The position numbers and the translations under genes are program-made. The notes beneath the pieces were generated by a model. That model was not told the origin of the DNA, made no database searches, and was given only the letters and a program-made list of their open reading frames with translations. Positions 23,851-41,385 of a stretch of DNA of 64,000 nt are shown in pieces. The DNA comes from Candidatus Borrarchaeum weybense. Lineage in GTDB: Archaea; Asgardarchaeota; Sifarchaeia; Borrarchaeales; Borrarchaeaceae. Location: contig JAHQJS010000004.1 in NCBI GenBank assembly GCA_019057385.1, positions 384,001-448,000 of the forward strand. Direction: 5' to 3'. Within the stretch, counting starts at the first letter, position 1. Each line of letters opens with the position of its first letter.

Positions 23851-24046
23851 TCTCTATCACAACCTTAATCTTGTTTTTTCTTACTACAACGTGATGCTAT
23901 CCTAGATGGTTTCATGCTATTTCTCATATATTGTTTCTAGAATAAGAAAGTATTTATATCATAACTAGTCCATTACATATATCATGGATAGTTTCACCTA
24001 TATAAAGATATTGAAAGGAAATGCAGAAGCTTAAGAGGGATTCACA

Positions 24047-24976
24047 ATGGAATTTGAATACGGAGAGATTTATCCTTTTGACGAAGAAGGAGTTAACTAT
24101 TCTGGTACGAGTTGGTATGAACTGGTCGGGCTAGACACGGCAAAACAAAAACTTGAACAGTTTGTAAAGGCAATATTGCAGCAATCCTTTTTTGAAGATA
24201 CACGACTTCCCTTTAGACCCTCTATTCTTTTACAGGGTCCCCCTGGTACAGGAAAGACCGCTCTTACTCTTGCTTTTGGTCAAAAAGAAAAATTCCCCAT
24301 TATTATCTTGCTTACTACTAAAATTATCCGCGCAAAACTAGGTCAATCGGGGGAAAATCTAAGTAATGCCTTTGCGTACGTCAAAGATTATGCTATTCAG
24401 AGAAAAAAACCATTGATATTGTTCATCGATGAATTTGACTCTTTCGCTCGCCAACGGGATGACGTACAAGAAATAGGTGAGATTAAGCGGTTGGTTAATT
24501 CGTTATTAACTGAATTAGATGTTTTAATCGCCCAACATAAGAATATTATTCTCATTGCAGCTACTAATCATGCTAACACCATTGATAGGGCCGCATTCCG
24601 AAGATTTGCTATTCAAATTGATTTTACTATTCCAGCACCTGAGTTACGTCATCATATTTGGAGTGAGTTTCACCGTAGAATTCAGTTAAGAATTCCAGAG
24701 TGTAAGTGGGATCTTGACACATTAGTGGAACGAACTGAAGGATATACTGCAGCTGATATCGAGCGTATCGTTCTTAGCGCAGCTATCGAATACATACATC
24801 AGGATCTCGACACAATCAATACGGAATTGCTTCTCCAACAATTAAGGTATGTGACACCCACATCCAAGCACATGGGCAAGGAAGAATTGTCTGATCTTTT
24901 AGACCTAGATAGTATTGATCTCCGCAAGATTAAAGGAATTACCGATGGATTTAAGACTCAAGCAAGTCGTTTATAA
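24047..24976 (+). CDS. AAA+ ATPase (classic clade, single domain)
   Basis: GPPGTGKT, LFIDEFD, AATNH..IDRAAFRRF, GYTAADI. Confidence 0.92.
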   Translation: MEFEYGEIYPFDEEGVNYSGTSWYELVGLDTAKQKLEQFVKAILQQSFFEDTRLPFRPSILLQGPPGTGKTALTLAFGQKEKFPIIILLTTKIIRAKLGQSGENLSNAFAYVKDYAIQRKKPLILFIDEFDSFARQRDDVQEIGEIKRLVNSLLTELDVLIAQHKNIILIAATNHANTIDRAAFRRFAIQIDFTIPAPELRHHIWSEFHRRIQLRIPECKWDLDTLVERTEGYTAADIERIVLSAAIEYIHQDLDTINTELLLQQLRYVTPTSKHMGKEELSDLLDLDSIDLRKIKGITDGFKTQASRL

Positions 24977-27900
24977 CTCTCTTTTGTGGAAAGTAACGGA
25001 CGCCAAGAGTATGAGTTCAAAAGAAAGCTTAAAAACAGCGAACTTCCAAGACATGTATCTGGTTTTAAAAGCTGTCGAAGTAAACAATTTCGGAATACAT
25101 AAGCATTTAACAATGTCCTTTGAGAAACCTATCAACTTAATTGTTGGGGCAAACGCAGTTGGAAAAACTACACTCTTAGATGCTGTTAGCATTGCTTTAG
25201 GTGGAGAGAGTGATCGCTACGGGACTCTCAAAGATTTAGTAGGTTATGTTGGACCCGCGGGAGACAAAGCTTCAGTAACAGTGTACTTGAGAAATCCGTC
25301 TAATGAGAACAAAAATCACCCACTTGTTGACTATGGAATATATACGAACTACGTGAAAGAAGAATTAAAAATTGAGGTCACAATCACCCGAGATTCAGTT
25401 TACTGGCAAGTAAATGATCGACAAAAAAAGCATGGCCGACAAGAAATTCGGAAGATGCTTCAAAGTGCAACCATTCGGATAGATATGTCTGATGAGATTT
25501 TGTTTACACGTAAAGACACGATTGATAAGTTCATGAGCGGAAGTCCTGTCGAACAGTTCCAACAAATTCTCACTTCTCTTAAACTCGCGAACTTACAGGA
25601 AGATATCCAAAACACTCAAGGTGAAGTCAAGAATTTACAAAATAAACTCCCGGAATTAGATTATCGACGGAAAAGTCTTGAGAAGGATCTTGAAGTAGCT
25701 AAACAGTTGAAAGAACAATATGAGCGAAAGTTTGACTTATTAGACCAAAAAGCAAGATTAACAAACATCTTGAACTGGATAGAGTATAATGAATGGCAAA
25801 CACGACTAATAGAGTTAGATGAGCAGACAACTCTCTTAAAAAAAGATCTTGAGGAGTTACAACACGAATACCAAGAAATAGAAACTCAATCTAAGCAAAA
25901 CAAACGAAATGAGCAGTTATTACAAGACCAGCTAAACGAGATGCAAACAAGGCTGACAGATTTAACCCGCCAAAATGAGGAGAGACTCCGAAATATCGGC
26001 TTAATAAAAGAAGATATTGCTGGGAAGGAGGCGGAACACCGTATCAAAGATCAGTACCTTCAAGAAAATGTTCAAAGACAGGAAAATTTGCAAAAAATCT
26101 ACCAAGAAGAAATTATTAAAGGCTCTCTCTTGTCATTAGAAGATTGGAAGAATTCTAAACCATTAATTGAGGAAAAAAGACGTGCACTAAAAGACTTACA
26201 GCAAAAAGATATACAGGCACTACAGACATGCAATAGCCGGTTATCACATCTTGCCACACGGATCAAGCGGTATGATACGCAGGAAAATCAAATACTCAAT
26301 GAGTTAGCTAAACTGAATCAAACTGTAACAAGTGGAACAAAATTTAATGCTGGGGAACACCATGTATTAGCACTACGCCGAGCCTTGGATCAGCTTCTTT
26401 GGGGGAAAAAAGTTACAAAACCGCTATTTCAGGAGATTTTTATAAAACCTGATGGCGAACTCTGGGAAGGAGCCATAAATCATGCGCTTGGGGGATTGCG
26501 TTCATATGTTCTAGCTAAGGATGCGGCAACAATTAATCAATTGAGAGAGTACATGGAACAGAACAATTTCAGTGTTTGGGTCGCACGTTTACCCAAAATA
26601 GCAAATATTCCAACTAGATCACTACAATCTCTTCCTGAAAACTTAAAAGATCTTATAGTAGGCTGGATTGACGATTTTTTGGAGTTTGATGATCCATTTA
26701 TTGCTACCTATCTTTTAGCGAGAACTCGCGCACTTCTGGTAAAGAGTAATGCTTCCGCCACTGAACTCTTAGAACTGGCTAAAATAACGGGCGCAGACGT
26801 GTACACTGCGCAACCCTCGGTATTTAAACCTGATGGACGCTTCCGCACGAACGTCCGAACCTCCTACTCATTAGGAAAAAGAACTGATAATATCGAGAAA
26901 GTCATAGAACTTCAAACAAAATTAGAGCACATCAAAAATGAACGCGCAAAATTAATAGACCAGCGTTTAAAGATTCTTGAAAAAAAGGCAGAGCTTCAGG
27001 ATAAGCAAGCTCAATTGCAAGAACAAATCGATGCATTACAAGATCAAATCACTCACATGGCCAAGAAGGATCCTACATCGATACTGAAATCTATTGAAGA
27101 ACTAGACAAAACGATTAAGGAGCAACATAAAGAAATTGAGCGAATAGCAGAAGAGTTAGAAAGCACTAAGACTCGATTAAAGCCATTAACAGAGAATACC
27201 TTCATTGAGGAAATTAAATACCTTAATAATGAGATCCCTAAAATTCAAGAACAGATTGGGGGATATAGAACTCACGACCAAGTTCTTGAAAATCGTTTAA
27301 TTGAATTAAAGTCAAAAATTGAAACTATGAAAGCCGAATATCAAGATATTGAAAGAGATCTAGAGCTCCGCCGCAGTAAAGTTGCACAATATAAAGAAAG
27401 CTTGGTCGATCCTGCCCCAAAACGCCTTCCACCCAAAACAAAAGTTCTGAGAGAAATTTATGAAATTGATGGTGCTGTAAATCAAATCACAGCCACTGCT
27501 TATGATGTAGAGCAGTACGAGAAACTAGAGAAATATTATCAAGAAACAGGACAAGATATTGAGAGAGTTTCACAAGCACTAGATGAAACTAGACAGCAAC
27601 TTGAAGATTACTATCAAGAATGGAAACAACGAGTCAAGTTTGTTCTTCAACAGCTTCAGGATGTGGCGAACTTTTTACTATCTCCTTTCATTCAGGTTAG
27701 ATGCTCTACAACTAATTCCTTGGATATGAAACAGATTGGTCTAAAAGTAGAGTTTACTAACAAGACGAATGGAAACGAGAAATATGAACTTTATCATGTG
27801 GCTTCCGGTGGTGAGCGTGCTTTAATCACTCAATCATTGTTCTTAGCTTTACATACGCTGAATCGAAGTTCTCCTATCCACATTGTCGATGAATTTACTC

Positions 27901-28106
27901 AACGTTTGGACGAAAAATATCGCGGTCACGCCTTTATCATGGTTAAACGCCTTCTAGAAAAACTCAAGGAAATAAACGGACAGAATGGCGGTTATAACTG
28001 GAATCTGATTCCTCAGCTCATTTTAGTTGCACCAATAGTAGTAGGAAGCTATATCCCTCCAGAAATAGATACTCAATATTTATTCAAAGTAACTAAACTG
28101 AGTTAA
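24915..28106 (+). CDS. SMC-family ATPase, SMC5/6-like
   Basis: Walker A GANAVGKT, two coiled coils around a hinge-like region, signature ASGGER, Walker B IVDEFTQRLD. Confidence 0.85.
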   Translation: MISARLKELPMDLRLKQVVYNSLLWKVTDAKSMSSKESLKTANFQDMYLVLKAVEVNNFGIHKHLTMSFEKPINLIVGANAVGKTTLLDAVSIALGGESDRYGTLKDLVGYVGPAGDKASVTVYLRNPSNENKNHPLVDYGIYTNYVKEELKIEVTITRDSVYWQVNDRQKKHGRQEIRKMLQSATIRIDMSDEILFTRKDTIDKFMSGSPVEQFQQILTSLKLANLQEDIQNTQGEVKNLQNKLPELDYRRKSLEKDLEVAKQLKEQYERKFDLLDQKARLTNILNWIEYNEWQTRLIELDEQTTLLKKDLEELQHEYQEIETQSKQNKRNEQLLQDQLNEMQTRLTDLTRQNEERLRNIGLIKEDIAGKEAEHRIKDQYLQENVQRQENLQKIYQEEIIKGSLLSLEDWKNSKPLIEEKRRALKDLQQKDIQALQTCNSRLSHLATRIKRYDTQENQILNELAKLNQTVTSGTKFNAGEHHVLALRRALDQLLWGKKVTKPLFQEIFIKPDGELWEGAINHALGGLRSYVLAKDAATINQLREYMEQNNFSVWVARLPKIANIPTRSLQSLPENLKDLIVGWIDDFLEFDDPFIATYLLARTRALLVKSNASATELLELAKITGADVYTAQPSVFKPDGRFRTNVRTSYSLGKRTDNIEKVIELQTKLEHIKNERAKLIDQRLKILEKKAELQDKQAQLQEQIDALQDQITHMAKKDPTSILKSIEELDKTIKEQHKEIERIAEELESTKTRLKPLTENTFIEEIKYLNNEIPKIQEQIGGYRTHDQVLENRLIELKSKIETMKAEYQDIERDLELRRSKVAQYKESLVDPAPKRLPPKTKVLREIYEIDGAVNQITATAYDVEQYEKLEKYYQETGQDIERVSQALDETRQQLEDYYQEWKQRVKFVLQQLQDVANFLLSPFIQVRCSTTNSLDMKQIGLKVEFTNKTNGNEKYELYHVASGGERALITQSLFLALHTLNRSSPIHIVDEFTQRLDEKYRGHAFIMVKRLLEKLKEINGQNGGYNWNLIPQLILVAPIVVGSYIPPEIDTQYLFKVTKLS

Positions 28107-28280
28107 GATCCGTAAATCTACACTTGTAGGGCTTATACGTTATTATCAAATATTGTGAAGAATAAAAAAAATATTTATTGTACATTTACATAATATGATC
28201 AAAATATGAAGACTTGAAAAATTAATGTTTCATTTTCATAATTGTACATGTTCCAGTATGACGACTATAAAGGTGACTAA

Positions 28281-31133
28281 GTGATAGAACATAAACCTTC
28301 CTCGAAGGAAACGTATCTACTAGGCATTGACTTAGGCACTACTAACACCTATGCCTGTTTATCAAAAATTCGAGATGAAAGATTATTAGATATTATTCCT
28401 ATAGGTATAACGCAACTCCGACAAAGTTTTCAGACAACTACTGACGAGTGTTTACCTTCGGTAGTTTACTTTCTTAAACAAGAAGAATTTGGTGTAAATT
28501 GTCTTGTAGGTAAAGGCGCTAAGGAACTTATTACTTCAGAACCAGAACGGGTTATCTGTTCGTCTAAAACTCACATTGGAACCGATAAAGTCTACAAGAT
28601 CAACGGGATGTCTTATATACCCCGTGATATCGCAGCAATTATTTTTGATACAGTCAGGCAGAGTGTGCAAGTATCCTCTCCAGAATATCTCCAAGGCGAT
28701 ATAATTGTAGGTGTTCCATCTCGATTTAATGCAGAACAAAAGGCAGATACTCTTAAGGCTGCAGAAAGAATATTTACGAAAGCATCAACTATCTCTTTAG
28801 TGGAGGAACCAGAAGCTATTGCTTTGTGGTATCTCCATGAGGAGATTAATACTGACAGTAAAGATACCTTTCTTAAAAAATGGTGTTTTGGAAAAAGGCG
28901 ATTTTTAGTTATAGATATGGGTGGGGGAACGTTAGATGTAGCCATTATCGAGGCGACACTACGTGACGATGTCGAATTTGATAAAGAGAATCCAAAAACA
29001 TATCCAATAGTAAAACGAATAGCAATTGGTGAATTTACTCAATGTGCAGGAGATGAATTTGACAAATTAATAGCGGAGAAACTACGCGTAGAACTTTATC
29101 CTAATCTTTCAGACGAGGAATATGAACACTACAAGCCATGTTTTCTCGAACAAGCGGAACGGATTAAGTTGGCTATTAGTCTGAAGATGCGAATGCAGGA
29201 CGCTTCCACTACGGTCCGAATACTGTTCTATTTATTAAGCACACATGAACCAAAAGAAAGCATATGGGATGTTGATAAGTACTATAACGCAGTTAAATCA
29301 CTACTTCCTCCCTCTGGCTTTACGTTTTATCATGATTATATCGAGGAATACAATCGAAAACAATGGTTGAAAACTACTATCCTTCGTCCGATTATTGATG
29401 CATATATCCAAATAGATGAGAATGAACGTCTAATTGATGGCCGTTTGTTCGATGTATTCATTCTAGCGGGCGGAATGGCTGAATTTCCCTTAATTGAAGA
29501 CATCTTTCATGAAATTTTAGGTGTTGCACCTGTTCGTCTGCGGAAGGACCCCAAGAGAGCTGTTGCTCGAGGTTTAATTGTTGAACATTATTTTGAGAAA
29601 TTTGACAGTATTTCTAAAAAAACTATCGGACAGACTTATGGCGTTAAAGTTTTTGATCGGAGCAAGCAACAGCCTGTATGGAAAAAATTTATTCGAAGAG
29701 ATGAAGAACTCCCGATCATTAAGAAAAATGTGCTTTCTGGAACATTGAGTGCGAAACAATCTAAGATCCTTTTTTCACTAGGTAAAAAACCTATAGGGGA
29801 GGAGAATTATGCACCTATCCGAGACTACTCGGTTGCATTAGATCCACCCCCAACAGAGCAAATTGCCTTCTCTCTTAATGTTTTAGTGAATGAATCTGGT
29901 GCAATTGAAATAGATGGAAAACGAGGTGATAATTGTGGGTTTATTCGGATAGGGGCATTAACAGGCGATGAAAGAGAAGAAGATTATGAGCCATTAATAC
30001 CTGAAGCGACTGATCGGAAGTTCACTCGTGAAAAACTTAACGAGTTACTTCCTAAAAAGGAATCGATAATTCGACCAAGAGAAGATAAGAGCCCTAAGAC
30101 AGTTTTAATTGAATTTAGGAAAGTTCTTGATCAAGAAAAGAAAAACAGAAGGAAACTCAGTCAACATCGTGAAGAATTTGCAAATTTAAGGAAAATTAGA
30201 AAAGCGCTCCGATCTCTTCAACAGAGTTACAGAAATAGATTTGGAGATCTTAAGAAACTCAAACATAATATAGCCACAAAAAATGTCTGTTTTGATGAAC
30301 TTCGAGAATACGTCCTTCTATTTGGTGATATTGTTAAATCGCATGTTCAGCGTAATGAGCCATGGAAACTTGACCAATTAACTGCATCTATTATCGCTGA
30401 TTTGACGGAAGTGATTCTAGAATATGGTCTACGTGGTGAAGTGCTATTTTCTTTAATGAGGCTCATTAGATATGTTATTCTCAAAATTCCAACTTTCCAG
30501 CCACCTAGATTCCAAGATTTGATTGATTTCGCCTTAGAAGAAAGTGGTAAATGGACTGAAGAGGTTTACTACGCCTTAAGTTTGATGGCAAATCCTTCAT
30601 CTTATCTTATCGACAAAATTATTTTTGCCCTCACATCAAAATACGGATTTAGTGCACTTCATGCCCTAGGCTTGTTTGTTAGACGACAAAATGAAACACA
30701 AAGTTATGATTTTCCAACTATACAAACTATTTGGGTGACTCTTCTTCATTTATTCACAAAAATAATTGAAGATGCTCCCTATGAAATTGAATTACCTCCA
30801 CTCAGCTCTGATATTATAGCCAATAGCAGATTTCAATCAACTAAATTTGACAATTTAAGAAAGAACGAGACATTTCTAGAAAAACTCTTCTTTATATTGG
30901 CTTACTTCGTGAAAAGTGAAGTTGATCTGCCCGAAAAACAGCGATATCCTGAAATGCTCAGAATAATATTTAACAGCAATGAATTACCAGAGATGCTTCA
31001 CTATCAGATCCAATTATGCCTGTACTGGTACGAAGGACAAAAATTCTTAGAAGAAATCGATGCTCGGGATGAAGAATTAGAGACCCAGGAAATAAGTAAT
31101 AGGATTATTGAGTATTATCTCCAAATTAACTAG
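28281..31133 (+). CDS. Divergent Hsp70-like protein with helical C-terminal extension
   Basis: GIDLGTTN, VGVPSRF, EEPEA, IDMGGGTLD, LAGG motifs; C-terminal third unlike DnaK. Confidence 0.85.
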   Translation: MIEHKPSSKETYLLGIDLGTTNTYACLSKIRDERLLDIIPIGITQLRQSFQTTTDECLPSVVYFLKQEEFGVNCLVGKGAKELITSEPERVICSSKTHIGTDKVYKINGMSYIPRDIAAIIFDTVRQSVQVSSPEYLQGDIIVGVPSRFNAEQKADTLKAAERIFTKASTISLVEEPEAIALWYLHEEINTDSKDTFLKKWCFGKRRFLVIDMGGGTLDVAIIEATLRDDVEFDKENPKTYPIVKRIAIGEFTQCAGDEFDKLIAEKLRVELYPNLSDEEYEHYKPCFLEQAERIKLAISLKMRMQDASTTVRILFYLLSTHEPKESIWDVDKYYNAVKSLLPPSGFTFYHDYIEEYNRKQWLKTTILRPIIDAYIQIDENERLIDGRLFDVFILAGGMAEFPLIEDIFHEILGVAPVRLRKDPKRAVARGLIVEHYFEKFDSISKKTIGQTYGVKVFDRSKQQPVWKKFIRRDEELPIIKKNVLSGTLSAKQSKILFSLGKKPIGEENYAPIRDYSVALDPPPTEQIAFSLNVLVNESGAIEIDGKRGDNCGFIRIGALTGDEREEDYEPLIPEATDRKFTREKLNELLPKKESIIRPREDKSPKTVLIEFRKVLDQEKKNRRKLSQHREEFANLRKIRKALRSLQQSYRNRFGDLKKLKHNIATKNVCFDELREYVLLFGDIVKSHVQRNEPWKLDQLTASIIADLTEVILEYGLRGEVLFSLMRLIRYVILKIPTFQPPRFQDLIDFALEESGKWTEEVYYALSLMANPSSYLIDKIIFALTSKYGFSALHALGLFVRRQNETQSYDFPTIQTIWVTLLHLFTKIIEDAPYEIELPPLSSDIIANSRFQSTKFDNLRKNETFLEKLFFILAYFVKSEVDLPEKQRYPEMLRIIFNSNELPEMLHYQIQLCLYWYEGQKFLEEIDARDEELETQEISNRIIEYYLQIN

Positions 31134-31199
31134 ACTTGAGATATCATCACTAGAACAAGAAGATTTTAGGCAAAGTTATTAGTCTATAAAAATTAATGC

Positions 31200-31970
31200 T
31201 CAAATCTTAAGAAGATCCGAACGCACCGTAAAATATTTTTTGCGAGGATTATCCACATTAAGATGAACCAGTTTCTCAATCGCAAAGGTTTTCATATATT
31301 TATCAAAATACTCTTTTGGTAGAAGAAGAATTGGACAGTGCATCTCATAAGCCCCTTCTTTCTTTTTATCTATAACTTCTCCTTCCTCGATTTTGAGCTC
31401 AATTTGACGTGCCAGTGATTTTAAATACTTTAGAAGAGTTTCTCGTCTGCAATACTCGGGAAATCTCATTGGTCGTTCACTAATAACTTCAGGAAGATTG
31501 CTTGATAAAAATTGTGAAATTTCACGAATTTTTTTAACACAATTCTCTCCTAGAGGTGTAAGAGTATTGTTTTGGGAAGAAAAAAGTTGTTCCACACGTC
31601 CCTTTGGATCCTTTCCGATATATTTGTAAACTAAATTAGGTTTGACATTGCGTATTATACCCCAACAGAATAATTGCACTTTTCGCACTTTCAATAATTG
31701 AAAATCTTCCTTAGTCCAAGAATCAAAAACTTCTAAGGCGTCTAATCCAATTTTTCGTATTGTACATCTCTGAACGCCTGCTTCCTTCACAATCAAACCC
31801 ATGTCTTTGAGTAACTTAACCGCGCTATACGCAAATTTACCTTTTGGAAAATATACTGTTCTTTCAGCGTCACTTTCATTAATAGATTCAGCGTCTCTTA
31901 GATAACAGAGAACCTCAATAACATCTTTTCGATCAAAAATCCGGATCATTAAAACTTCGTCCATAGCCAT
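31200..31970 (-). CDS. Hypothetical protein, N-terminal winged-helix-like region
   Basis: VKLLKDMGLI...TIRKIG pattern. Confidence 0.45.
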   Translation of the reverse strand: MAMDEVLMIRIFDRKDVIEVLCYLRDAESINESDAERTVYFPKGKFAYSAVKLLKDMGLIVKEAGVQRCTIRKIGLDALEVFDSWTKEDFQLLKVRKVQLFCWGIIRNVKPNLVYKYIGKDPKGRVEQLFSSQNNTLTPLGENCVKKIREISQFLSSNLPEVISERPMRFPEYCRRETLLKYLKSLARQIELKIEEGEVIDKKKEGAYEMHCPILLLPKEYFDKYMKTFAIEKLVHLNVDNPRKKYFTVRSDLLKI

Positions 31971-32527
31971 TCCTCACTATCATTTTCAATTATTTCACTC
32001 CTTGCCATCCGCCCCATCTTTTGTGAGGATTTGCAAACTGTAATTTTCTTTTGCCCAGTTTATCTCATTCATCCAACTACATGAAGTTACAACTAAATAA
32101 ATATGCAAAGTAGATAAAAGGCATAACTATTAATCAGGTCTATGATTATTGTTTATCCTTCATATAGTGCATGAAATCTACTTTACTTGAGAGAGACTGC
32201 AATAAAACTGTGAAAGTGGTTTTTTGTAGTTTTTAACTACTATCTTGCTACGATTTTGCTTTTAGTGAGAGCTCGTATAGATTCAATTAATGAAAATAAC
32301 GATCTCAAATTTATGACAAACTCGATCGAACATGGTGAAGATTCTAGGAAAACGCTGAAAACATGCTAATGGTGATCTACTGAACGATCACAAGTGAGAT
32401 TTGCGCGGATAAACGAGTGGAATCGAAAAGTATACTACAAAGGTTAACCTTAAGGATCCAATTTGAGTATATATATACTTGAATTCACAAATGAAATTAC
32501 ATAAATATACTTGAAGAATGTGATAAA

Positions 32528-32842
32528 ATGGCTGTAAATGATGTAATAATGGATAAAATATTATGTATGGTGTACCATTGGCAAGATGCTTATCCCAGTA
32601 TATCTGAATTAAATAAGAGATTCGAAATAAAAAATATGGAAACAATTGAAGCAGATAGGGAGATATGGGAAAGAATATTAAAATTACAGGCTAAAAAATA
32701 TGTAGAAATCAAAAGACCTCTTATTTCCATAACAAATCATGGCATTAACTATCTAAATAAAAAATATCCAGAACTTGCTGAGCGAAGTATAAAAGAATGC
32801 CTTTTTGTAACTTGCAAAGATTGCGATATGTTAAGCTCTTAA
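32528..32842 (+). CDS. Small winged-helix protein
   Basis: ILKLQAKKYVEI....ISITNHGINYL pattern. Confidence 0.55.
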   Translation: MAVNDVIMDKILCMVYHWQDAYPSISELNKRFEIKNMETIEADREIWERILKLQAKKYVEIKRPLISITNHGINYLNKKYPELAERSIKECLFVTCKDCDMLSS

Positions 32843-33051
32843 TTTTGAATATTCTTTGAGCAATGCCTCTTATTCTAAATAATTTGAAAGACCGCAGAGT
32901 GTTTAATATGCGCCTCAAGTCGCTTGACTAGTTAGTGTCCTATGATTATTAAACAATAAACTGGTTTATTTGTTCAGTTTTTTCAATTTGTTCCTGCTGG
33001 TTGATTAAAGGTAATTTTTTGAGTATACGAGGACAAAGGTTTTTGATGATT

Positions 33052-33299
33052 AATTTGTGTCTAAAAATAGAGATTTAAGAAAAACTAGAAGGAAAATTAC
33101 GAAAAAAGGTTATGTGTGTCTTAGATTTGTGGAAATAGAATTGATTAGAATTGAGAAAAATGAATATACTAAAATTAAAATGATCTTTGTCAAAAAATGA
33201 CTAATCAGAAATGAGAATAAGAATTTGTGTCTAAAGAGAAAAAATAGAGCAGGAAATTTAAGATAATTAATTTTTGGACAATTTTTTTAGACACAAATT
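33052..33299. repeat. Cluster of 14-bp AATTTGTGTCTAAA repeats
   Basis: Direct copies at 33052-33065 and 33222-33235, inverted copy at 33286-33299, degenerate copy near 33112-33125. Confidence 0.75.
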
Positions 33300-33429
33300 G
33301 AAGGTCTTTTTCATTTGCCCTGTTCAAGTGTTGAAAGATCGTATTGGGCAAAACCATTATCTACTAGGTGTTTGCGTTGTGGATACCAAATCCTTACGCC
33401 TTTTATAAATAAATTTCCAACCATTTTGT

Positions 33430-35133
33430 ATGATCACAATGCCACATATATTGGGATGGTATTCGGTATGGGAACGGTTGGGACGAGCAGGTTATCTAAA
33501 GTTATTTGCTTTTCAGTATAAGGCGGTTTATGCATTCAGGGATGGAAAAGATATATTTGTAAAAGCACCAACGGGTGCAGGAAAGACGCTCATTCCGCTG
33601 ATTTGTGCTACTCTTATTCTTGGAATGAAAAAACGATGTGTGTTCCTTGTACCGACCAGGCGGTTGATCGACCAGACCTATGACCGACTCAAAGACTGGT
33701 TTGAAAGTATACCACATTGCGAAGAAGAGTACAATATCGTAACCTTAACAGGAGATAATCGACCTTCTTACAAAGAAATACGAGAAGTGCACATAATCAT
33801 AACAACCTACGAGTCTTTTAATGGTATGTTGGCAAAACATTACAGACATTCACTTTTGAACAATGTCGGACTTGTGGCGATTGATGAAATGCATTATGTC
33901 GGGGATGTAGAGAGAGGGACGCATCTTGAGGAGGCTATTGTCAAAGCGAAGTTGTGGTTGCGACCTCGTCCTCAGATGATCTACCTTGCGGCTACGTTAG
34001 GGAATATACAAGAAATTGGGGAGTGGTTAAAAGCTACAGTCATCGAAACAAAAAAACGCAAGTCGGAAATCATTGTTGGATCACCCATTAACGTCTATAA
34101 TGAGGATGAACGGTTAAAGGTTATTGCTCAGTTAGTTAAAGAAACGGATCAGATAGAGATAGGGGCAAAGGAAACTGACAAAAGATGTGTGCTGGTTTTT
34201 TGTAGATCGAGATGGCATGCCGAAACTAGAGCACAGAATCTTGCAAAAATGTTGGAGAAGGAAGGATACAAAAAAACTGTTTCATATAGCCACAGAGGAC
34301 TGAAAACTGTGGAACGACAAAAGCGGATGAAAGCGTTTCAAAAGGGTGAAATTGACGTGTTGTTCACCACAACAGAATACAAGGAGGGTGTGAATGCTCC
34401 AGTCCTGCGGGTCATCATAGCTGATACCGAGGTGTTCAATTCTCAGGACATTGAACAGATGATCGGAAGGGCAGCCCGTCCGCGATTTTTTCAGATCGGA
34501 TATGCAAATCTGATTATTCAGGGAAACATAGAAGACATTCTCGAAAATAAAAGAATAAGGATAGAGGAAGGGGTAGCCCATTTTGAGGAATCACCATTGG
34601 AAAGTTGGGCAAAATATCATTTGAACGAGATCATCCTCAACAGGTTAGCTAAGGGTGCCTGTTCGATAGGTCGGCTTATTAGGTATCTCAAAGAGTTTTA
34701 TTTTTACTTCGAGGATACAACTCAGATAAAGAATTGGTATAAAGTTATGGAAAACGCAATAAGTGAACGAGAGATGTTTATGCTTACCGCAGACAACTAT
34801 ATGATACTCTTCTCTTTAATAGATAATGACGATAGATACAATGCGAAGGATAAGAAGAACTTTCACTCTTTCGTAACTGAATTCCTGATGCGTAGTCGCA
34901 AGTGCGCTGAAACACAAAAAAGAAGGCGTAAAAGGGATAAAAAACTCGTACTTGAAAAGAAGATGGCTCTTGTTTTCTTGAAAGAATACTTAACTAATAA
35001 ACTAAAACGTTATGATGCTGAGCTAAAAACTCAAGTTAAAACTCATCTAGGCTACCTCATCCATATTGGGTTTCTTAAAAAACAGGAACTGGAATCTAAG
35101 GCAATAAAGGAAGGATTAGGAAGTGCAGTCTAA
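33430..35133 (+). CDS. Ski2/Hel308-like SF2 helicase (N-terminal part of a split helicase-Cas1 gene)
   Basis: APTGAGKT, DEMH, LAAT, HRGL, QMIGRAARP; ends midway through the winged-helix domain. Confidence 0.88.
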   Translation: MITMPHILGWYSVWERLGRAGYLKLFAFQYKAVYAFRDGKDIFVKAPTGAGKTLIPLICATLILGMKKRCVFLVPTRRLIDQTYDRLKDWFESIPHCEEEYNIVTLTGDNRPSYKEIREVHIIITTYESFNGMLAKHYRHSLLNNVGLVAIDEMHYVGDVERGTHLEEAIVKAKLWLRPRPQMIYLAATLGNIQEIGEWLKATVIETKKRKSEIIVGSPINVYNEDERLKVIAQLVKETDQIEIGAKETDKRCVLVFCRSRWHAETRAQNLAKMLEKEGYKKTVSYSHRGLKTVERQKRMKAFQKGEIDVLFTTTEYKEGVNAPVLRVIIADTEVFNSQDIEQMIGRAARPRFFQIGYANLIIQGNIEDILENKRIRIEEGVAHFEESPLESWAKYHLNEIILNRLAKGACSIGRLIRYLKEFYFYFEDTTQIKNWYKVMENAISEREMFMLTADNYMILFSLIDNDDRYNAKDKKNFHSFVTEFLMRSRKCAETQKRRRKRDKKLVLEKKMALVFLKEYLTNKLKRYDAELKTQVKTHLGYLIHIGFLKKQELESKAIKEGLGSAV

Positions 35134-37468
35134 GGTAATAAAGAACGGGAAATATAGCGTAACAGAAACTGGACAATGGGCAAGTCAATTTCTATTAAAG
35201 ACCAGCGATGCAAAGAAGATCCACAAATTTCTCCAGACACAGTATTTTTATTCAGAAGACGACGCTTGTAAAAAACTGGCGACTCTTATAAGTGAGAGTG
35301 TCCGTGAGAACGATAATTCGCGATATAGAGCGCAACAATATGAGTTGTTCATATTATCTTTAGTAGAAGGGTTCGATATTGATGAGGCAGCGGAAAACGC
35401 TCGGATGCGACAAGGGGATGCCGAAGGGTGCAGAAGAACTGCCGCGTGGATTGCAGAGGCAGTTAATGCCTACGTTGGAAAGAACATTCCGAAGATCGCG
35501 GAAATGGCAGAAGGAATTAGTGAAGCGCTTACCGTAGATAAAAGAAGGGAAATAGGACCTGGGGTGCGAAGTTATGCAAAAGAGAAACCCTCGTCATATC
35601 CAGGTATTCAAAAAACAATTTGTTCTGTTATTAATCAATTAGGAATTTGCACATATGATGCGATCCATAACATAATTACTGACAAATATGGTGAGTCAGT
35701 AGATCGAACGACAACAATTTGGAACATCCTTGATTTAAGGGCGAAAGACGAAGTTATAACTTTATCAAGAGGCAAGGGAATAGGGCGTCCCGTAATCCAT
35801 GTGTGTAAAAAGGGAATGAATGTACCTGAACATATGCGCAAGACTTGCGGATCCTGTGTATTTTACATATCCTGTGACGATGATGAAAAAGAACGAGACA
35901 ATCAAAGATTTATCTGTGAACTGCGAAGGGAATGCAACAAGCGCGTGGAAAAAAATATTGTAAGCACGTACGTTACGAGCAATATGGGTGCGTGTAAATA
36001 TCATAATTCGTCTCAAGAGCGAAAAAGACGAAGTTTTCGTAAATTTGAGAGGACAGACACAGGCAAACCTATCTGCCAAATTTGTAAATCGGATGCCGTT
36101 AAGGAACCAACCGCTTATGATCACTACACCATATGTTCCAATTGTAATTCACAGTATTACTACCTTTGCGACGGCAGGTTCAGTGTTCAGCCAGGTGTCA
36201 GAGATTTATTACAGCAAGCATTAGAAGAAATCTATGGAAAGTCCGTTAAACCTGTTAAAAGGTGTGCAAAACTAGAGGGTTCTTTAGATCGGCAATACGT
36301 TGAATTAACCATTAAGAAAGGGGATGCAGCTCATATTGACCAAAATAAACTCATTTATATTCCAAAAGAGGAGAAGACACGTTCTTATTTGTTAGATGCC
36401 ATTGAATGTGTTAGAGTGCTTGACGGTGCATATATCACGCCTTATGTATATGAGAAACTCGATGACAGAATTTTATCTGGCAAGAATGTGAATAGACCGC
36501 CAAACGCTTCCTTTGAAGGGTATATAAACATACCTGACGTGCACAATCAACTGAAAGAACGTATACAAGAAATTCGAGAGCAAGAAGTTGGTTTGGCATT
36601 GGCGAGGATACTTATAATGGGTAAGAAAATGAATAATGCAATTCTTACTCTGCAAGCTGGTGAGGAGGGATTACTGTGCCCAGTAGATGCCAGCAGGTTA
36701 TTTTTCAAACAAATGAATGTTGTCGCCCATACTATCATGTATTGGACGGGAAATAGAGAAAATCTGCTCAGTTTCGAGGCGGTTGGCGAACGATACGCAT
36801 GGAAAGCAATTAAACGCGCCTTGAAGGATACATCTATGCGCTTTGAAAATCGTACACAGGAACGATATATCTTTTCGGTTCCCTATATCGGCAAAGTTAG
36901 GGCACGATCTCCCTTTAGTGCAGGACTTAATGCCATTTATCGCCGTGTCCTCGAAATATGTAGAGAGGTGCTTTGCGAAAAAGGATTCTCTTGGTTTCCT
37001 GGCGAACTCGTACTCCATTATAGAAGAAGAAAAGACCAACAAATCCCCATTGGAACAGCTCTTGATTTCCGAGAGTTGTTTTTGGCACTGTTCAGATTCA
37101 CTTATATGAAAGCGTGCAAGAAGGATCAAATTAGGAATACAGATTTTGTACTGTCAAGTACATCTCGCGAGGAAAAAGTATATACCCTTACATACGAGGC
37201 AGAGGATAAAGTTAGAGACTTAATCGAAAGCGTCATGAATAAAGAGGTATATTATCTTGGAAAACAGATGTCACTTTGGAAAGCAATGAAAGAATGCGCA
37301 CGTTCACTTCGCAACTTTTTATTAGAGGGATCTAAATTTATTCCTTTTGTCTGCGCATTAAATGAGGAGCAATTTAAAAAGATTTTAAAGACTTTCCAAA
37401 ATATAGAGAGGTTTTGTGGACCTTCAGGTAAAGGACCTCCTGTTTCAATGTTTGATATCTTATCATAA
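35123..37468 (+). CDS. cas1: Hel308 C-terminal domains + HTH + Cys-rich Zn fingers + Cas1 integrase domain
   Basis: N-term YSVTETG..AS and GDAEG...AAWI (Hel308-like); several CxxC motifs. C-term Cas1 pattern LLSFEAVGERYAW...RSPFSAGLNAIY...VLHY...ALDFRELF, with the E/H/E catalytic positions present. Confidence 0.8.
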   Translation: MQSKVIKNGKYSVTETGQWASQFLLKTSDAKKIHKFLQTQYFYSEDDACKKLATLISESVRENDNSRYRAQQYELFILSLVEGFDIDEAAENARMRQGDAEGCRRTAAWIAEAVNAYVGKNIPKIAEMAEGISEALTVDKRREIGPGVRSYAKEKPSSYPGIQKTICSVINQLGICTYDAIHNIITDKYGESVDRTTTIWNILDLRAKDEVITLSRGKGIGRPVIHVCKKGMNVPEHMRKTCGSCVFYISCDDDEKERDNQRFICELRRECNKRVEKNIVSTYVTSNMGACKYHNSSQERKRRSFRKFERTDTGKPICQICKSDAVKEPTAYDHYTICSNCNSQYYYLCDGRFSVQPGVRDLLQQALEEIYGKSVKPVKRCAKLEGSLDRQYVELTIKKGDAAHIDQNKLIYIPKEEKTRSYLLDAIECVRVLDGAYITPYVYEKLDDRILSGKNVNRPPNASFEGYINIPDVHNQLKERIQEIREQEVGLALARILIMGKKMNNAILTLQAGEEGLLCPVDASRLFFKQMNVVAHTIMYWTGNRENLLSFEAVGERYAWKAIKRALKDTSMRFENRTQERYIFSVPYIGKVRARSPFSAGLNAIYRRVLEICREVLCEKGFSWFPGELVLHYRRRKDQQIPIGTALDFRELFLALFRFTYMKACKKDQIRNTDFVLSSTSREEKVYTLTYEAEDKVRDLIESVMNKEVYYLGKQMSLWKAMKECARSLRNFLLEGSKFIPFVCALNEEQFKKILKTFQNIERFCGPSGKGPPVSMFDILS

Positions 37469-37703
37469 ATACAATTCACTTTTTGCTCTCTTTTTCGACT
37501 TGGATTAATTTAGACCATCAACCTCTTCCTTTTGGTTCTCTAAGAAATGCTTCTTCTTGGTGAAAAACCTAACTAAGAATAAATTTGATTCAATGTTTAT
37601 TTAAATGAAAAGAAGAACAAGAAAGGTTTTTTCCTCCATCTCCAAAGACATAGATAAAAACGTTACTAGATCGCTTATTTTTACAAAAGGAGTTCATAAA
37701 ATA

Positions 37704-37750
37704 ATCCGTTATACAAAAAGCGTTATTTAAAAACCGCAATGCTTATATAC
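37704..37750 (+). promoter_or_regulatory. Promoter region of the cas7-like gene; putative target of guide 1
   Basis: TTATATA at 37743-37749, ~34 bp before ATG 37783; 44/47 identical to 38771-38817. Confidence 0.7.
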
Positions 37751-37782
37751 TCGGTTGCAAAGGTATATTTGAGGTTTTCAAA

Positions 37783-38598
37783 ATGAAAAAAACTAAGAAA
37801 CAGATCAATGTTCATGCCTTCACTCCTATTGCGAAACCGATCAATACCTCCATACAGAAAAATTCCACTATGCTTCTTTTGGGAGAAATTCCGTATGTCA
37901 ATGGATCGAAAACATTTACTACCAAGCTGTATTATCTCAAAGGTTTGCGAGGAATGCTGAGGCATGCCTGCATGGACTTAGCACGTGCTTACGATATCGA
38001 GGTCTGTCACAGTTCTGAAAAGACTGAACTCAGGGATGGGACAAAACTCGTCTCGCAAGGGTTTCATCCGCTGGGTGCCTGTGATCCTCCCTGCATTCTG
38101 AGGCGTATCTTCGGTACGTTCAGAGAAGACTCCCGCATTAGTGTTTCCGCCGATCCCATCACTTCTATCAGCCATAAGGAATACATTACCGAAGTTCCCG
38201 TCCAAAAAGTTCATATCGCCAGTGAAAATAGGATTGCTCTTTCCTATGACAGGATCCCCATACAAGACTTTAGACAATCCTATTTTTCAGGTTACTTTAC
38301 CTTTTCCATTGATGCCACCCAATTGACCGATGATGAGATTAAATTTCTCTTGGAATCGCTGTTGCATATAGAGTACTATGGTGGTGGCAGAAGTGCGGGC
38401 TATGGTCATGTCAAAATTCTAAATGTTGAATTGCTGCACATAACAATCGAAAGAAAATTTGAATCTGAGAACGGAACTCTGAAAGTCGTTGAAGAGGAAA
38501 AAGTAACTCCGCTAGAACTTGATACTCTCGATGACTGGACGGAAAGTATATCCCTATCTGCACTGACACAAGAACTAGAATTGATGGATGGGGAGTGA
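37783..38598 (+). CDS. cas7: Cas7/Csm3-like RAMP protein
   Basis: KGLRGMLRH, C..C..RRIFG, ENRIA, C-terminal G-rich loop GGGRSAGYG.V. Confidence 0.85.
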   Translation: MKKTKKQINVHAFTPIAKPINTSIQKNSTMLLLGEIPYVNGSKTFTTKLYYLKGLRGMLRHACMDLARAYDIEVCHSSEKTELRDGTKLVSQGFHPLGACDPPCILRRIFGTFREDSRISVSADPITSISHKEYITEVPVQKVHIASENRIALSYDRIPIQDFRQSYFSGYFTFSIDATQLTDDEIKFLLESLLHIEYYGGGRSAGYGHVKILNVELLHITIERKFESENGTLKVVEEEKVTPLELDTLDDWTESISLSALTQELELMDGE

Positions 38599-38648
38599 AA
38601 AAGATGTTGAATAACCTGCAATACTCGTTATTTCCTTTTTTCTCATCT

Positions 38649-38851
38649 AAGACGGAATGCTTCCCTTGTAGCGAGGGGAGCACGTTCTTGTGCATGAGAC
38701 TGAACCATCTTGGAGGTCTGACGCCTCGTCTCATGGGGATGGATGACAGGCAGGGGACGAGAAAAGTCACATCCGATTTACAAAAAGCGTTATTTAAAAA
38801 CCGCAATGCTTCTATACAATTAATATGCCCGTTATAACATTGATAACGGGC
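38649..38851 (+). ncRNA. Putative guide RNA 1: scaffold 38649-38770, variable segment, 3' hairpin 38827-38851
   Basis: Scaffold homologous to 39758-39875 with compensatory stem changes. Variable part matches 37704-37750. Hairpin gcccgttat-N7-ataacgggc. Confidence 0.7.
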
Positions 38852-38875
38852 TAAAATCTATAAATAGGGATAAAG

Positions 38876-39691
38876 ATGACACAAAATTGGTTTAAATTGA
38901 TAGGAATCACCAAAACGCCTGTGATCACAAGAAGAAGGCGGTTTTTCTATAAATTAGGAGTAATCTCCATTCATGGTCGCCCCAGAGTCTTCGGTAAACT
39001 CACAAAAGGGGAAAGACGCCCACCTAAGACGTATAGGGCGTGGTATGGTGACGTCGAGTTTATCGTGCCAGAAGACAGACTTGACGACGCGCTCGCCATT
39101 GATTGTTTCGGGAGTTTCACTAATGAAGGCATGGGACAAATGCAATGGAAAGAAGCGAAAAAACTCTACAAAAAACCCCTCTATACTCCGAGAAAAGCCA
39201 AGATCAGAAAAATGCTTCCGAAACTTTCAGAGACGCAAGAAAAACTATTAATAGGTTTTTTACTTCATGATTTTGTCCATACCGAAAAACACAACAGCAA
39301 AATCTATACCGAGGTTAATATATATGATGGATTTGTCTATGAATTGGCTAAAAATCATCATAATTACACGATAGACGATAGAGAAATCCCTTTGCTCTGT
39401 ACTCTTCAATATTACGATAGGCTTTCTTCAAGAATCTCAAGAAAATTCCGCTTTTCTGCGTCCTCACGCTATCGCGTCACTGAAATAGAAAAAATAGATT
39501 TCGACGAACTTAAACAGGAGATCGAAACGCGCCAATATTCCCTATACGCGCTTTATAGTTATGTCTATAAGTCTCAGACACTCAATAAAATCAACGAAGC
39601 ACTCAAATTCGGTTTTTCATCGCTAAAAAATCATCTCTTATTAATGGTTAACCTGTATATTGATGACTCACAAGAGGCTATATACTTATGA
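38876..39691 (+). CDS. Small RAMP (Cas5-like) fused to an HD nuclease-like domain
   Basis: KTPVIT first strand, G-rich loop FGSFTNEGMGQM, then LLHDFVH...NHH...YDRLSS (Cas10/Cas3-type HD pattern). Confidence 0.65.
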   Translation: MTQNWFKLIGITKTPVITRRRRFFYKLGVISIHGRPRVFGKLTKGERRPPKTYRAWYGDVEFIVPEDRLDDALAIDCFGSFTNEGMGQMQWKEAKKLYKKPLYTPRKAKIRKMLPKLSETQEKLLIGFLLHDFVHTEKHNSKIYTEVNIYDGFVYELAKNHHNYTIDDREIPLLCTLQYYDRLSSRISRKFRFSASSRYRVTEIEKIDFDELKQEIETRQYSLYALYSYVYKSQTLNKINEALKFGFSSLKNHLLLMVNLYIDDSQEAIYL

Positions 39692-39720
39692 CACGAGAAA
39701 CTCTCGTTTTGAATAGTGGC

Positions 39721-39730
39721 GTTTATATAG
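39721..39730 (+). promoter_or_regulatory. TATA box for guide RNA 2
   Basis: GTTTATATAG ~28 nt upstream of the conserved scaffold start. Confidence 0.55.
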
Positions 39731-39757
39731 GTCTTTGCAAGCGAATATACAAGTTAC

Positions 39758-39957
39758 AAGGCGGAATGTTCCTCGCATCACGCGGAGAACACGTTCTTGT
39801 GCATGAGACTGAACCTGAGAGGTCTGACGCCTCGTAGAAGGGAATGAATGACAGGTAGGGGACGAGAAAGGTCAAAAAACAAGTGGTGTATGCGATAAAG
39901 TGGACGTGTACCAAAAAGTAATATATAAACGATGGAGGGCTCATTTGAGCCCTTTTT
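39758..39957 (+). ncRNA. Putative guide RNA 2: scaffold 39758-39875, segment matching the integration site, terminator-like hairpin
   Basis: Second scaffold copy; 39881-39914 matches the reconstructed empty DUF362 site at 28/34. Confidence 0.72.
39936..39957 (+). terminator. Hairpin plus T-run
   Basis: agggctc-attt-gagccct followed by tttt. Confidence 0.6.
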
Positions 39958-40014
39958 ATCTATTTAAAAACTGAGTTTTCCCGCCGATTTGGTCAAAAAT
40001 ATAAAACTGATATT

Positions 40015-40311
40015 TATGATAAAGTGGATGTGTATGAAGGTGGAACTTGTCAATATTGCAAGGCAATCGTCAAAACCGCGCTACAATCTCTACACAAGAA
40101 AGGAGACATTTCGCTAGTCAAAGATATGCAAGTTATTGTTGGTAAAAACCCTTCCGAGCCATATTCGAAATCAAGTTTAGATTTTATTGTAGGCGATTGC
40201 GCATGTGAATCGACAGATTACGAGGGTATTGAAATTCCTGGTTGTCCACCCTTTGACGCTTTCGTAAAAATCAGAAAAGCAGTGCACAACAATGTTTCTG
40301 AGAAAACATAA
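40015..40311 (+). pseudogene. Displaced 3' end of the DUF362 gene (attR-like)
   Basis: YDKVDVYEGGTCQYCK...SEKT is homologous to the C-terminus of 10277-11596; no 5' part. Confidence 0.85.
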
Positions 40312-41172: not shown

Positions 41173-41385
41173 AATGATTATGTTCTTCAATATCACGACA
41201 GAAGTTCCTCAAGTATTTCAGGAAAATTCAGATTTTCTGCGCCATTATTCAGAGAACACTTTCTTGTGAATTAAACTGAACTTAAAAGGTCTAACGCCTT
41301 ATAGAGGTTCATAATAAAACGAAAAGTTAAATTCTATACCTTTAAAATAGCTTGTATACAAATAATGAAAAAAGAAGGAAGATGG

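Follow-up and report, generated by a model that had tools for sequence, protein, structure and literature searches.

A putative homing guide RNA of an ARAMP-type, CRISPR-derived module in an integrated element of Candidatus Borrarchaeum weybense

Integrated element and empty site

The window analyzed here is a 64,000-nt stretch (C4:384001-448000) of the Candidatus Borrarchaeum weybense genome (G000; 4.18 Mb, 8 contigs), which was compared with four sister genomes of the same genus (G001–G004) and one genome of a related genus (G005). It contains a DUF362 gene interrupted by an integrated element, at the right end of which a helicase, a Cas1 protein, a Cas7-like RAMP, a first putative RNA (RNA1), a 271-aa protein (p271), and a second putative RNA (RNA2) follow one another (Table 1). 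RNA2 carries a segment, guide 2, that resembles the uninterrupted DUF362 site. With a probability of roughly 0.7, RNA2 is proposed to act as a homing guide RNA for a DNA-recognizing system of the ARAMP type, derived from CRISPR.

The DUF362 gene is native through position 11304 and element-borne from 11305 on, sharing 95–96% identity with its counterparts in the sister genomes up to this junction and diverging after it. The element-borne 3' end, hereafter the patch, is 292 nt long and shares 79.5% identity with the native 3' end that it displaced, over a 298-nt imperfect direct repeat. The displaced piece, which holds an open reading frame (ORF) of 95 codons (40024–40311), shares 89–95% identity over 40020..40311 with the 3' ends of the G002 and G004 DUF362 genes. 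The left and right halves of the target site are contiguous in G002, and the empty site reconstructed by joining 11290–11304 to 40020–40038 agrees with this uninterrupted allele at 33 of 34 positions. The DUF362 gene of G004 is contiguous with a ZIP transporter gene and lacks the 28.7 kb island, the shared region being 95% identical to window positions 40037–41305. The reconstruction of the empty site is correct, and uninterrupted alleles are present in G002 and G004.

One contig from another marsh sample spans the same right junction of the element. No empty-site or circle junction was found among the DNA contigs of four sequencing runs over 37600–41600. In the uninterrupted alleles of G004 and G003, a patch-like segment of about 20 nt lies right after the insertion point and is followed again by sequence of the native type; it may be the footprint of an earlier insertion that was lost via recombination between direct repeats.

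Table 1. Features of the DUF362 locus and the integrated element (window coordinates; CM R1, covariance model of the scaffold)
Feature	Position	Strand	Evidence or remark
DUF362 gene, full length in the occupied state	10277..11596	+	PF04015 at 1.2e-48
Left half of target site, ending TATGA (11300-11304) at the left junction	11290..11304	+	12/15 to guide bases 39881-39895
Integrated element, ~28.7 kb	11305..40019		Missing from the orthologous G004 locus
Patch, element-borne substitute 3' end of DUF362	11305..11596	+	298-nt imperfect direct repeat
Hel308-like superfamily 2 (SF2) helicase	33430..35133	+	DEAD/Helicase_C
781-aa protein with C-terminal Cas1 domain	35123..37468	+	TIGR00287 at 7e-7
Guide 1 target, promoter region (TATA-like boxes) before the RAMP gene	37704..37750	+	44/47 to 38771-38817
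Cas7-like RAMP, presumed backbone subunit	37783..38598	+	PF03787, 27.8 bits vs cut-off 22.1
RNA1 (putative): scaffold 38644-38769, 59-nt tail with guide 1 38770-38828, hairpin 38829-38852	38644..38852	+	CM R1, 130.8 bits
p271, 271-aa putative RAMP-HD protein	38876..39691	+	Invariant HD-type motif in 37 homologs
TATA-like box TTTATATA, presumed RNA2 promoter, ~27 nt before the scaffold start	39722..39729	+	Kept in four elements
RNA2 scaffold, predicted ~122-nt structured RNA ending ...GAGAAAGGTCA	39753..39874	+	CM R1, 133 bits, E 5e-35
Handle-like segment after the scaffold, unmatched to the target	39875..39880	+	Semi-conserved among copies; 1/5 to site
Guide 2, copy of the uninterrupted DUF362 site, sense to the mRNA	39881..39914	+	28/34 to empty site
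Terminator-like hairpin 39937-39952 and five-T run 39953-39957, presumed RNA2 3' end	39937..39957	+	Sequence, predicted hairpin
Right-end block of the element, ending ...CTGATATTTATGA	39958..40019	+	Comparable blocks terminate pyrD, ftsY, and PRC elements
Displaced native DUF362 3' end, opening with the right target half (40020-40038)	40020..40311	+	Right half 16/19 to guide
Decayed third scaffold copy, outside the element, 3' of the ZIP gene	41225..41341	+	CM R1, 24.6 bits, E 9e-5

Guide 2 and its match to the empty site

An earlier note on this DNA had proposed, from the letters of the window, that guide 2 copies the DUF362 site as it was before insertion, and its alignment was reproduced throughout. 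Guide 2 matches the reconstructed empty site at 28/34 positions, the occupied left junction at 24/34, and the right junction at 25/34, with mismatches to the empty site at 39887, 39892, 39893, 39905, 39911, and 39912 (12, 17, 18, 30, 36, and 37 in the earlier count, which set 39876 as 1). Tail positions are counted here from 39875, the first base after the scaffold's ...GGTCA, and the same six mismatches become 13, 18, 19, 31, 37, and 38. Four of them (39887, 39893, 39905, and 39911) are indeed third-codon positions of DUF362, and the other two alter residues (Y>C and E>Q). The crossover TATGA lies inside the match, as had been stated, at guide bases 39891–39895, with the insertion falling between 39895 and 39896. 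The poor fit reported for the bases just after the scaffold (1/5 to the site) was likewise found. Tail positions 1–6 are semi-conserved among scaffold copies (T/A-A-A/C-A/C-C/A-A), so the segment 39875–39880 looks like part of a handle.

The 34-mer of the empty site was scanned against both strands of all 8 contigs (8.36 million positions), and guide 2 was the best match except for the right junction, the next best match in the genome reaching 24/34. The earlier suggestion to examine uninterrupted DUF362 alleles in relatives was followed, and guide 2 matches the G002 allele at 27/34. The patch matches guide 2 at just 12 of the 19 positions past the junction, which makes the restored DUF362 gene a poor target. 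Since guide 2 has the sense of the DUF362 mRNA, it could pair only with the template DNA strand, and we infer that its target is DNA; all four other class-2 guides (defined below) with an identified target gene are likewise in mRNA sense. The earlier interpretation of guide 2 as a homing guide that recognizes the empty DUF362 site is supported by sequence comparison, three more elements of this genome carrying different guides that match their own uninterrupted sites, as seen in empty alleles of sister genomes.

Scaffold family and the putative RNAs

The scaffold that precedes guide 2 belongs to a family whose members were found by BLAST and by a covariance model (R1) built in this analysis. 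Copy numbers are about 25 in this genome, 9, 3, 4, and 22 in the four congeneric genomes, and 33 in G005, and a search of 55 further genomes of the phylum yielded no copy. Of the 26 base pairs in the consensus structure, seven show compensatory double changes. Many of the pairs are G-U pairs, which are possible on the + strand only and therefore fix the strand of the scaffold RNA. A minimum free energy fold of the whole of RNA2 was no better than those of shuffled sequences (z -1.08), so the structural support for the scaffold comes from covariation, and an Rfam scan of 37000–40500 returned only sub-threshold chance matches.

In four elements, the TTTATATA box precedes the class-2 scaffold by the same distance of about 27 nt, and the tails that lead from the scaffold to the hairpin stem measure 59 nt in RNA1 (38770–38828) and 62 nt in RNA2 (39875–39936). 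From these signals, 39753–39957 is predicted to be a non-coding RNA of about 205 nt in which the scaffold is followed by a handle-like stretch of 6 nt, a guide of about 34 nt, and finally the terminator.

The scaffolds fall into two positional classes. Class 1, to which RNA1 belongs, sits 3' of the RAMP gene, and its tails always match the non-coding promoter of their own RAMP gene, about 1.05–1.3 kb upstream; RNA2 is of class 2. The genome holds six complete and five partial modules. Scaffold units also occur in tandem, with 2–4 copies spaced 35–260 nt apart (C5:117937-119849; contigs C73 and C176 of G001; contig C9 of G004), an arrangement that recalls a repeat–spacer array in which the repeats are giant. 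Between its RAMP gene and RNA1, the C5 module has an additional unit whose guide matches DNA just past the last scaffold of the module. At the place in G004 orthologous to the decayed third copy, 3' of the ZIP gene, the scaffold is present in a better-preserved form. The right-end block of the element was considered as a further decayed scaffold and discarded, its score with the covariance model being non-significant (6.7 bits, E 8.7).

Six-nucleotide register

The register was defined with non-coding targets, namely seven RNA1/promoter pairs of this genome and one of G004, representing three lineages, in which the first base after the scaffold's ...GT(C/G)A was counted as tail position 1. Mismatches between the RNA1 guides and the promoters fall at tail positions 7, 13, 19, 25, 31, 37, 43, and 49. 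One lineage, for example, is mismatched at 7, 13, 16, 25, 31, 37, 43, 49, and 50, and another at 7, 13, 19, 23, 25, 29, and 37, with a one-base gap at 43; guide 1 of the present element differs from its promoter at 7, 9, and 43. After the pairs were collapsed by lineage, mismatches occupied 15 of the 21 in-register positions and 7 of the 117 others (Fisher, 1.5e-10), and the binomial P of the register was 3e-8, or 2e-7 after correction for a choice among six registers. When lineages are compared, their guides differ at 11–18 of 33 pairing positions, and each promoter tracks its own guide at 9–16 of those. Recent gene conversion is an unlikely source of this match, because the sixth positions would have been homogenized too, and promoter function by itself is insufficient to explain the pattern, because it predicts no period of six. 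A mismatch that recurs every 6 nt is the pattern expected for an RNA held on a Cas7 backbone.

Guide 2 places four of its six mismatches (13, 19, 31, and 37) in the register defined by RNA1 (1 mod 6 from 39875; hypergeometric P 0.004), and the enrichment persists when only the 11 wobble positions are considered (P 0.015). The tabulation of mismatches across homologs that the earlier note had called for thus yields a 6-nt, not merely a 3-nt, periodicity, and yields it in non-coding DNA. The background on which that note drew holds as well, since the alignment of wobble positions with every sixth guide position in type I-F3 homing guides is described by Petassi et al. (2020; 10.1101/2020.07.02.184150), and the RAMP encoded beside RNA1 has a Cas7 fold in its predicted structure (see below).

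Other elements whose guides match their own insertion sites

Targets were identified for four class-2 guides (pyrD, PRC-barrel, ftsY, and DUF362), and in every case the guide is directed to the site at which its own element is inserted. At pyrD, the guide agrees with the left flank, which lies 32 kb upstream, at 16/16 positions and with the right flank at 24/25; the sole internal mismatch of this guide, at position 25, is in register and lies at a second codon position, not at a wobble position, and an uninterrupted pyrD site is present in G004. The PRC-barrel guide matches sister-genome alleles at 31/32 and 30/32 positions, with mismatches only at 13 and 25, and the left junction of the PRC element, at which 8 bp are duplicated, falls at guide position 6|7. 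The native 5' part of ftsY, 10.35 kb upstream, stops exactly at guide position 7|8, and the ftsY element carries a patch, a diverged promoter and 5' part recognized only by comparison with sister genomes, that restores ftsY. This 10.35 kb element encodes only a fused helicase-Cas1 protein of 1336 aa, a TPR protein, small ORFs, the RAMP, p271, and the two RNAs. An alternative candidate for the ftsY left junction, C4:354732 (13/18), was dropped, as it lies inside an unrelated continuous ORF.

A fifth class-2 guide (C4:1004418-1004463, in the partial module C4:1002322-1004226) resembles the GQFFTPRNVVRMA-coding part of an hsdM-like methylase gene that lies about 1.3 kb downstream of the guide; all seven in-register positions of this pair are mismatched. 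Terminal inverted repeats and conserved left ends were sought among three elements and not found, and long direct repeats like the DUF362 patch were not detected in the other elements by blastn.

Whole copies of the PRC-barrel and ftsY targets stand beside the respective elements (C3:91537-91586 and C4:338792-338833). They differ from the guides at out-of-register positions that change residues (I>V, P>S, and N>T in one, E>Q and L>F in the other), changes that are absent from the sister alleles and may represent escape from self-targeting. A stretch right before the PRC-barrel gene (C3:91586-91640) matches the last 14 nt of the scaffold at 13/14 positions and supplies the ATG of the gene; judged by its sequence, it looks like an internally deleted, older scaffold copy.

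Proteins of the module and cargo of the element

The RAMP was modeled with AlphaFold at a predicted local distance difference test score (pLDDT) of 80 and a predicted template modeling score of 0.77, and the model has 136 PDB matches at E<=0.001. The best 50 of these 136 are all Cas7 backbone subunits, from types VII, IV, I-A, I-D, III-A, and III-E. The p271 protein, which has no Pfam match, is predicted to consist of an N-terminal beta-rich, RAMP-like domain and a C-terminal helical domain (model pLDDT 83). The fold matches of its N-terminal domain are weak (E 0.05–0.2) and consistently point to RAMPs (Csm3, Cmr1, Cas6, and Cmr3). Residues H131, D132, H139, H161, H162, and D181 are invariant in 37 homologs, and an HD nuclease is suggested by this H..HD..H..HH..D pattern. 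The source names of close homologs of the RAMP and p271 (Promethearchaeota, Candidatus Borrarchaeum, and Candidatus Sifarchaeia) point to Asgard archaea.

The Cas1 family is very rare, with 28 relatives at E<=1e-3 among 1.84 billion representative sequences, mostly in proteins of 800–2600 aa. A profile of 19 members matches the Methanosarcina casposase (6opm) at 8e-18 and Cas1 (4n06) at 8e-17, and the catalytic-type E, N, and H residues are invariant in the 19 sequences, with D conserved in at least 90%. Single-sequence phmmer searches of the Cas1 domain and p271 against PDB sequences gave nothing useful, a profile being needed for Cas1; the fused helicase-Cas1 paralog passes the threshold of Pfam PF01867.

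Besides Cas1, the Pfam scan of the element's ORFs revealed no recombinase, transposase, or PolB, and its hits include no Cas10 or other type III family and no TnpB or IscB. TnsB, TnsC, and TniQ gave no Pfam hits in the ORFs of the 28.7 kb element or of the ftsY element of about 10 kb, and no short repeat–spacer CRISPR array was found within the window. The cargo of the element includes TIR, RNase III, Piwi/pAgo, HD, AAA ATPase, SMC-like, and Hsp70-like genes. An operon-like set at 12148–16421 comprises a TIR-domain gene, a small ORF, a gene for RNase III that includes a dsRNA-binding motif, and one for an Argonaute of 776 aa with a Piwi domain.

Proposed mechanism

The module, with its RAMP, RAMP-HD protein, helicase-Cas1, and two scaffold–guide RNAs, is an ARAMP system by gene content. 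In the mechanism proposed for it, copies of the RAMP would coat the guide and leave every sixth base (7, 13, 19, and so on after the scaffold) unpaired; we infer that RNA2 assembles with the RAMP in this manner. Guide 2 would pair with the template DNA strand of an uninterrupted DUF362 gene and mark it as the attachment site. Insertion inside the paired region (39895|39896) would destroy the target, and the diverged 3' end borne by the element would keep DUF362 whole, yet poorly matched by the guide. RNA1, built on the same scaffold, would pair with the RAMP promoter, including its TATA-like boxes, and probably serves autorepression.

Several routes may follow recognition. The helicase-Cas1 protein could carry out strand transfer, or the HD domain and the helicase could cut the site, with subsequent recombination with the element-borne patch or with an occupied copy of the chromosome; a crossover within the guide DNA is a further option for insertion. 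Cas1 might alternatively add new scaffold–guide units, which do exist in tandem. Cas1 as the joiner would fit its being the sole integrase-like protein, even in the minimal 10 kb element, and the fact that a casposase is the closest relative with a solved structure. Modules of this kind occupy different guide-matched sites without any other integrase, and something programmable must choose the site. That ARAMP amounts to programmable RNA-guided DNA insertion, by a type III-derived Cas7 filament, a RAMP-HD subunit, a helicase-Cas1 integrase, and scaffold "repeats" of about 120 nt each with a single 3' guide, one guide repressing the promoter of the module and another selecting the attachment site, is offered tentatively, at somewhat less than even odds. 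The chance that the underlying mechanism is new in kind is likewise substantial, though below even.

Observations that weigh against the proposed mechanism

A number of observations speak against this proposal. Many solo scaffolds abut host genes in the sister genomes with the start codon at exactly +8. The genes concerned (L056, L050, L051, L045, and L033, in G001 and G004) encode GlmM, acyl-CoA dehydrogenase, ribosomal protein S19e, and a 149-aa product, and a scaffold stands in the same way directly before a GIY-YIG gene of this genome (C4:903885-903954), again with the start codon at +8. At these solo scaffolds, the GGTGA at the scaffold 3' end takes the place of the native ribosome-binding GGTGA, whose native spacing is 5–9 nt. 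A second copy of the first 20–38 nt of the host gene, as might mark a left junction, was not found within 8.7 kb for GlmM or within 12 kb for acyl-CoA dehydrogenase. In metagenome contigs (L091 and L094–L096), minimal RAMP-p271-scaffold modules without helicase-Cas1 abut convergent host genes, and the called ORFs of these genes (a glyoxalase and an MFS transporter) finish in the scaffold's terminal TCA, which reads as a TGA stop on the other strand. The "guide" of such solo or minimal copies is simply flanking host DNA, as in TnpB omega-RNAs. The scaffolds of G005 lie in ordinary intergenic regions, and a RAMP query finds nothing in this genome despite its 33 scaffolds, a result of little weight given that the assembly is 80% complete. 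The scaffold may thus have uses beyond guiding.

Other points concern RNA2 itself. Its transcription and its ends are read from the TATA-like box, the terminator, and the G-U pairs and covariation of the scaffold. At positions 18 and 38, guide 2 differs from the resident site out of register, which makes its activity on the resident allele uncertain, and every in-register position of its coding target is also a wobble position, so that guide 2 by itself is unable to prove the register. About half of the class-2 guides of the genome have no detectable target. Where a target is present, the junction varies, from position 20–22 or so at DUF362 and pyrD to 6–8 at ftsY and PRC, and so does the target duplication (a shared 5-bp TATGA at DUF362, 8 bp at PRC, and none at pyrD).

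The enzymology adds its own difficulties. The helicase and Cas1 are split here into overlapping ORFs (567 and 781 aa; boundary 35095–35143), and form one fused protein of 1325–1356 aa in the paralogs and the metagenomic relatives; the split form may be impaired or may function as two separate chains. A casposon-like reaction is disfavored by the lack of inverted repeats, of a conserved left end, and of a regular target duplication, and by the variable junctions. As Cas1 needs free 3'-OH ends and the elements lack terminal inverted repeats and conserved left ends, insertion by Cas1 is hard to explain.

Alternative explanations

The most credible of the alternatives is itself unlikely. It accepts the guide as real and derives it from Cas1-mediated spacer uptake at the attachment site, assigning it a role in exclusion or retention instead of first integration, either by cutting empty alleles for repair from the occupied copy, in the manner of a TnpB-like or homing-endonuclease drive, or by blocking rival elements. 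Several features fit such an origin: the putative HD nuclease domain and the helicase together resemble parts of Cas3, inverted repeats or a defined left end for a transposase-like reaction are lacking, scaffold units stand in tandem like repeat–spacer units (the C5 locus and the G001 and G004 contigs named above), and the intact targets beside the PRC and ftsY elements carry out-of-register, amino-acid-changing differences that resemble escape. However, guide 2 derives from an allele other than the resident one, as its 28/34 match indicates, and so was carried in, not copied here after arrival. The occurrence of related modules at different guide-matched sites, with no other integrase, also argues against uptake. 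Guide 2 is a homing guide in both accounts, which therefore overlap.

It is very unlikely that the segment is an untranscribed or functionless scar, a DUF362 leftover from an earlier insertion or excision that belongs to an attP-like region. In its favor, the patch is certainly DUF362 DNA captured by the element, RNA2 is a transcript predicted from sequence signals, and the single-sequence fold of the whole unit is unexceptional. Against this, the segment lies at a fixed distance after a covarying scaffold and before a terminator, a layout shared with RNA1, and its mismatches follow the register that RNA1 defines. The PRC guide, moreover, matches the functional alleles of the sister species at 31/32 positions, whereas the resident copy is more changed (26/32), the opposite of what decay would produce, and the same arrangement recurs in four different elements with four different genes.

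No more credible, and if anything slightly less so, is a scaffold that acts as a mobile promoter or leader cassette for the neighboring gene, with the DUF362-like tail as a regulatory or incidental leader. The solo and minimal copies are what speaks for it, through the likeness of the scaffold's GGTGA to the local ribosome-binding motif, the start codon at +8 with the native GGTGA replaced in five host genes of the sister genomes and in the GIY-YIG gene here, and the convergent host genes of the metagenome contigs that finish in the scaffold's TCA. In the present element, however, the tail precedes a terminator and about 60 nt of non-coding DNA and no gene, and the target gene is split. A leader explains neither the covariation with a distant promoter, which recurs every 6 nt across 50 nt, nor the match to both halves of a split site. 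Chance resemblance, for which only the shortness of the segment could be invoked, is refuted by the score of 28/34 against a background maximum of 24 and by the same guide–site relation in three other elements.

Comparison with known systems and significance

ARAMP systems have been catalogued since 2020 and, as Makarova et al. (2020) are summarized in PMC8730458 and PMC12669027, they are array-less, type III-derived, linked to a distinct Cas1, and "enigmatic", with a mechanism that is possibly non-programmable. A search of the literature, in which Makarova et al. (2020) is represented by these summaries, found no guide RNA or homing role for ARAMP. Going by the same summaries, the present module shares with ARAMP the Asgard host, a diverged Cas7-like RAMP and a distinct Cas1, with p271 as a candidate for the second RAMP protein linked to a nuclease domain, and it likewise has no canonical array, Cas10, or Cas2. 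It differs in that the modules here carry predicted scaffold RNAs of about 120 nt with 3' guides, directed to their own promoter or to the insertion site. The term array-less holds here for canonical arrays only, since the scaffold of about 120 nt recurs and is sometimes in tandem. Type III CRISPR-Cas systems proper differ from the module by their Cas10 and CRISPR array.

The closest functional parallel is with type I-F3 CRISPR-associated transposons (CASTs), in which the guide is likewise encoded by the element and directed to a conserved chromosomal gene near the element end, and the non-pairing sixth bases are placed on codon wobble positions, where mismatch is tolerated (Petassi et al., 2020). 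In contrast to these, the present element has no TnsA, TnsB, TnsC, or TniQ, its effector is type III-like and not type I-F, and its guide follows a long 5' scaffold instead of lying in a repeat–spacer array. Insertion occurs within the target (DUF362 and pyrD) or at its 5' edge (ftsY and PRC), not about 50 bp downstream, and the target gene is kept intact by a replacement piece that the element brings along. The element thus resembles a CRISPR-derived, guide-directed mobile element, functionally comparable to those with I-F3 homing guides and devoid of their transposition genes.

The module also recalls casposons in that its only recognizable integrase is a Cas1 homolog, whose best match among solved structures is the casposase 6opm. 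PolB, terminal inverted repeats, and a target duplication of 14–15 bp are absent here, Cas1 is fused to a Hel308-like helicase in the paralogs, and the choice of site appears to be RNA-guided. With the omega-RNAs of TnpB and IscB (IS200/IS605), RNA2 would share its layout, a structured scaffold with the guide 3' of it, and its location at the right end of a mobile element. Cas7 filament proteins take the place of the RuvC nuclease, and the present element has an internal guide that extends across the insertion point and precedes a terminator. RNA1, whose guide appears to be directed at the promoter of its own effector, is reminiscent of self-regulating guides such as the long-form tracrRNA of Cas9 and CreR-type RNAs, and differs from them in effector class and RNA architecture.

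Taken together, the locus and its paralogs supply ARAMP with a candidate for the RNA that it had been missing, in the form of a conserved scaffold with variable guides. The functional signature of this RNA is its 6-nt periodic covariation with the targets, for which Cas7-type pairing is the only source, and its biological role is suggested by a guide that matches the element's own insertion site. The results suggest how array-less, Cas1-linked ARAMP systems choose their targets and offer predictions of RNA, target, and base that can be tested at the bench. If the reading of ARAMP as a programmable insertion system is true, it would provide the first example of a large element integrated in a Cas1-dependent, guide-directed manner, and type III effectors would have in it their first descendant that targets DNA. 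If helicase-Cas1 joins the DNA, elements of tens of kilobases would possess a new guide-directed route of insertion. Neither Tn7-like CASTs nor bridge-RNA recombinases nor TnpB would be related to this route, which would occur in the lineage of archaea that stands nearest to eukaryotes.

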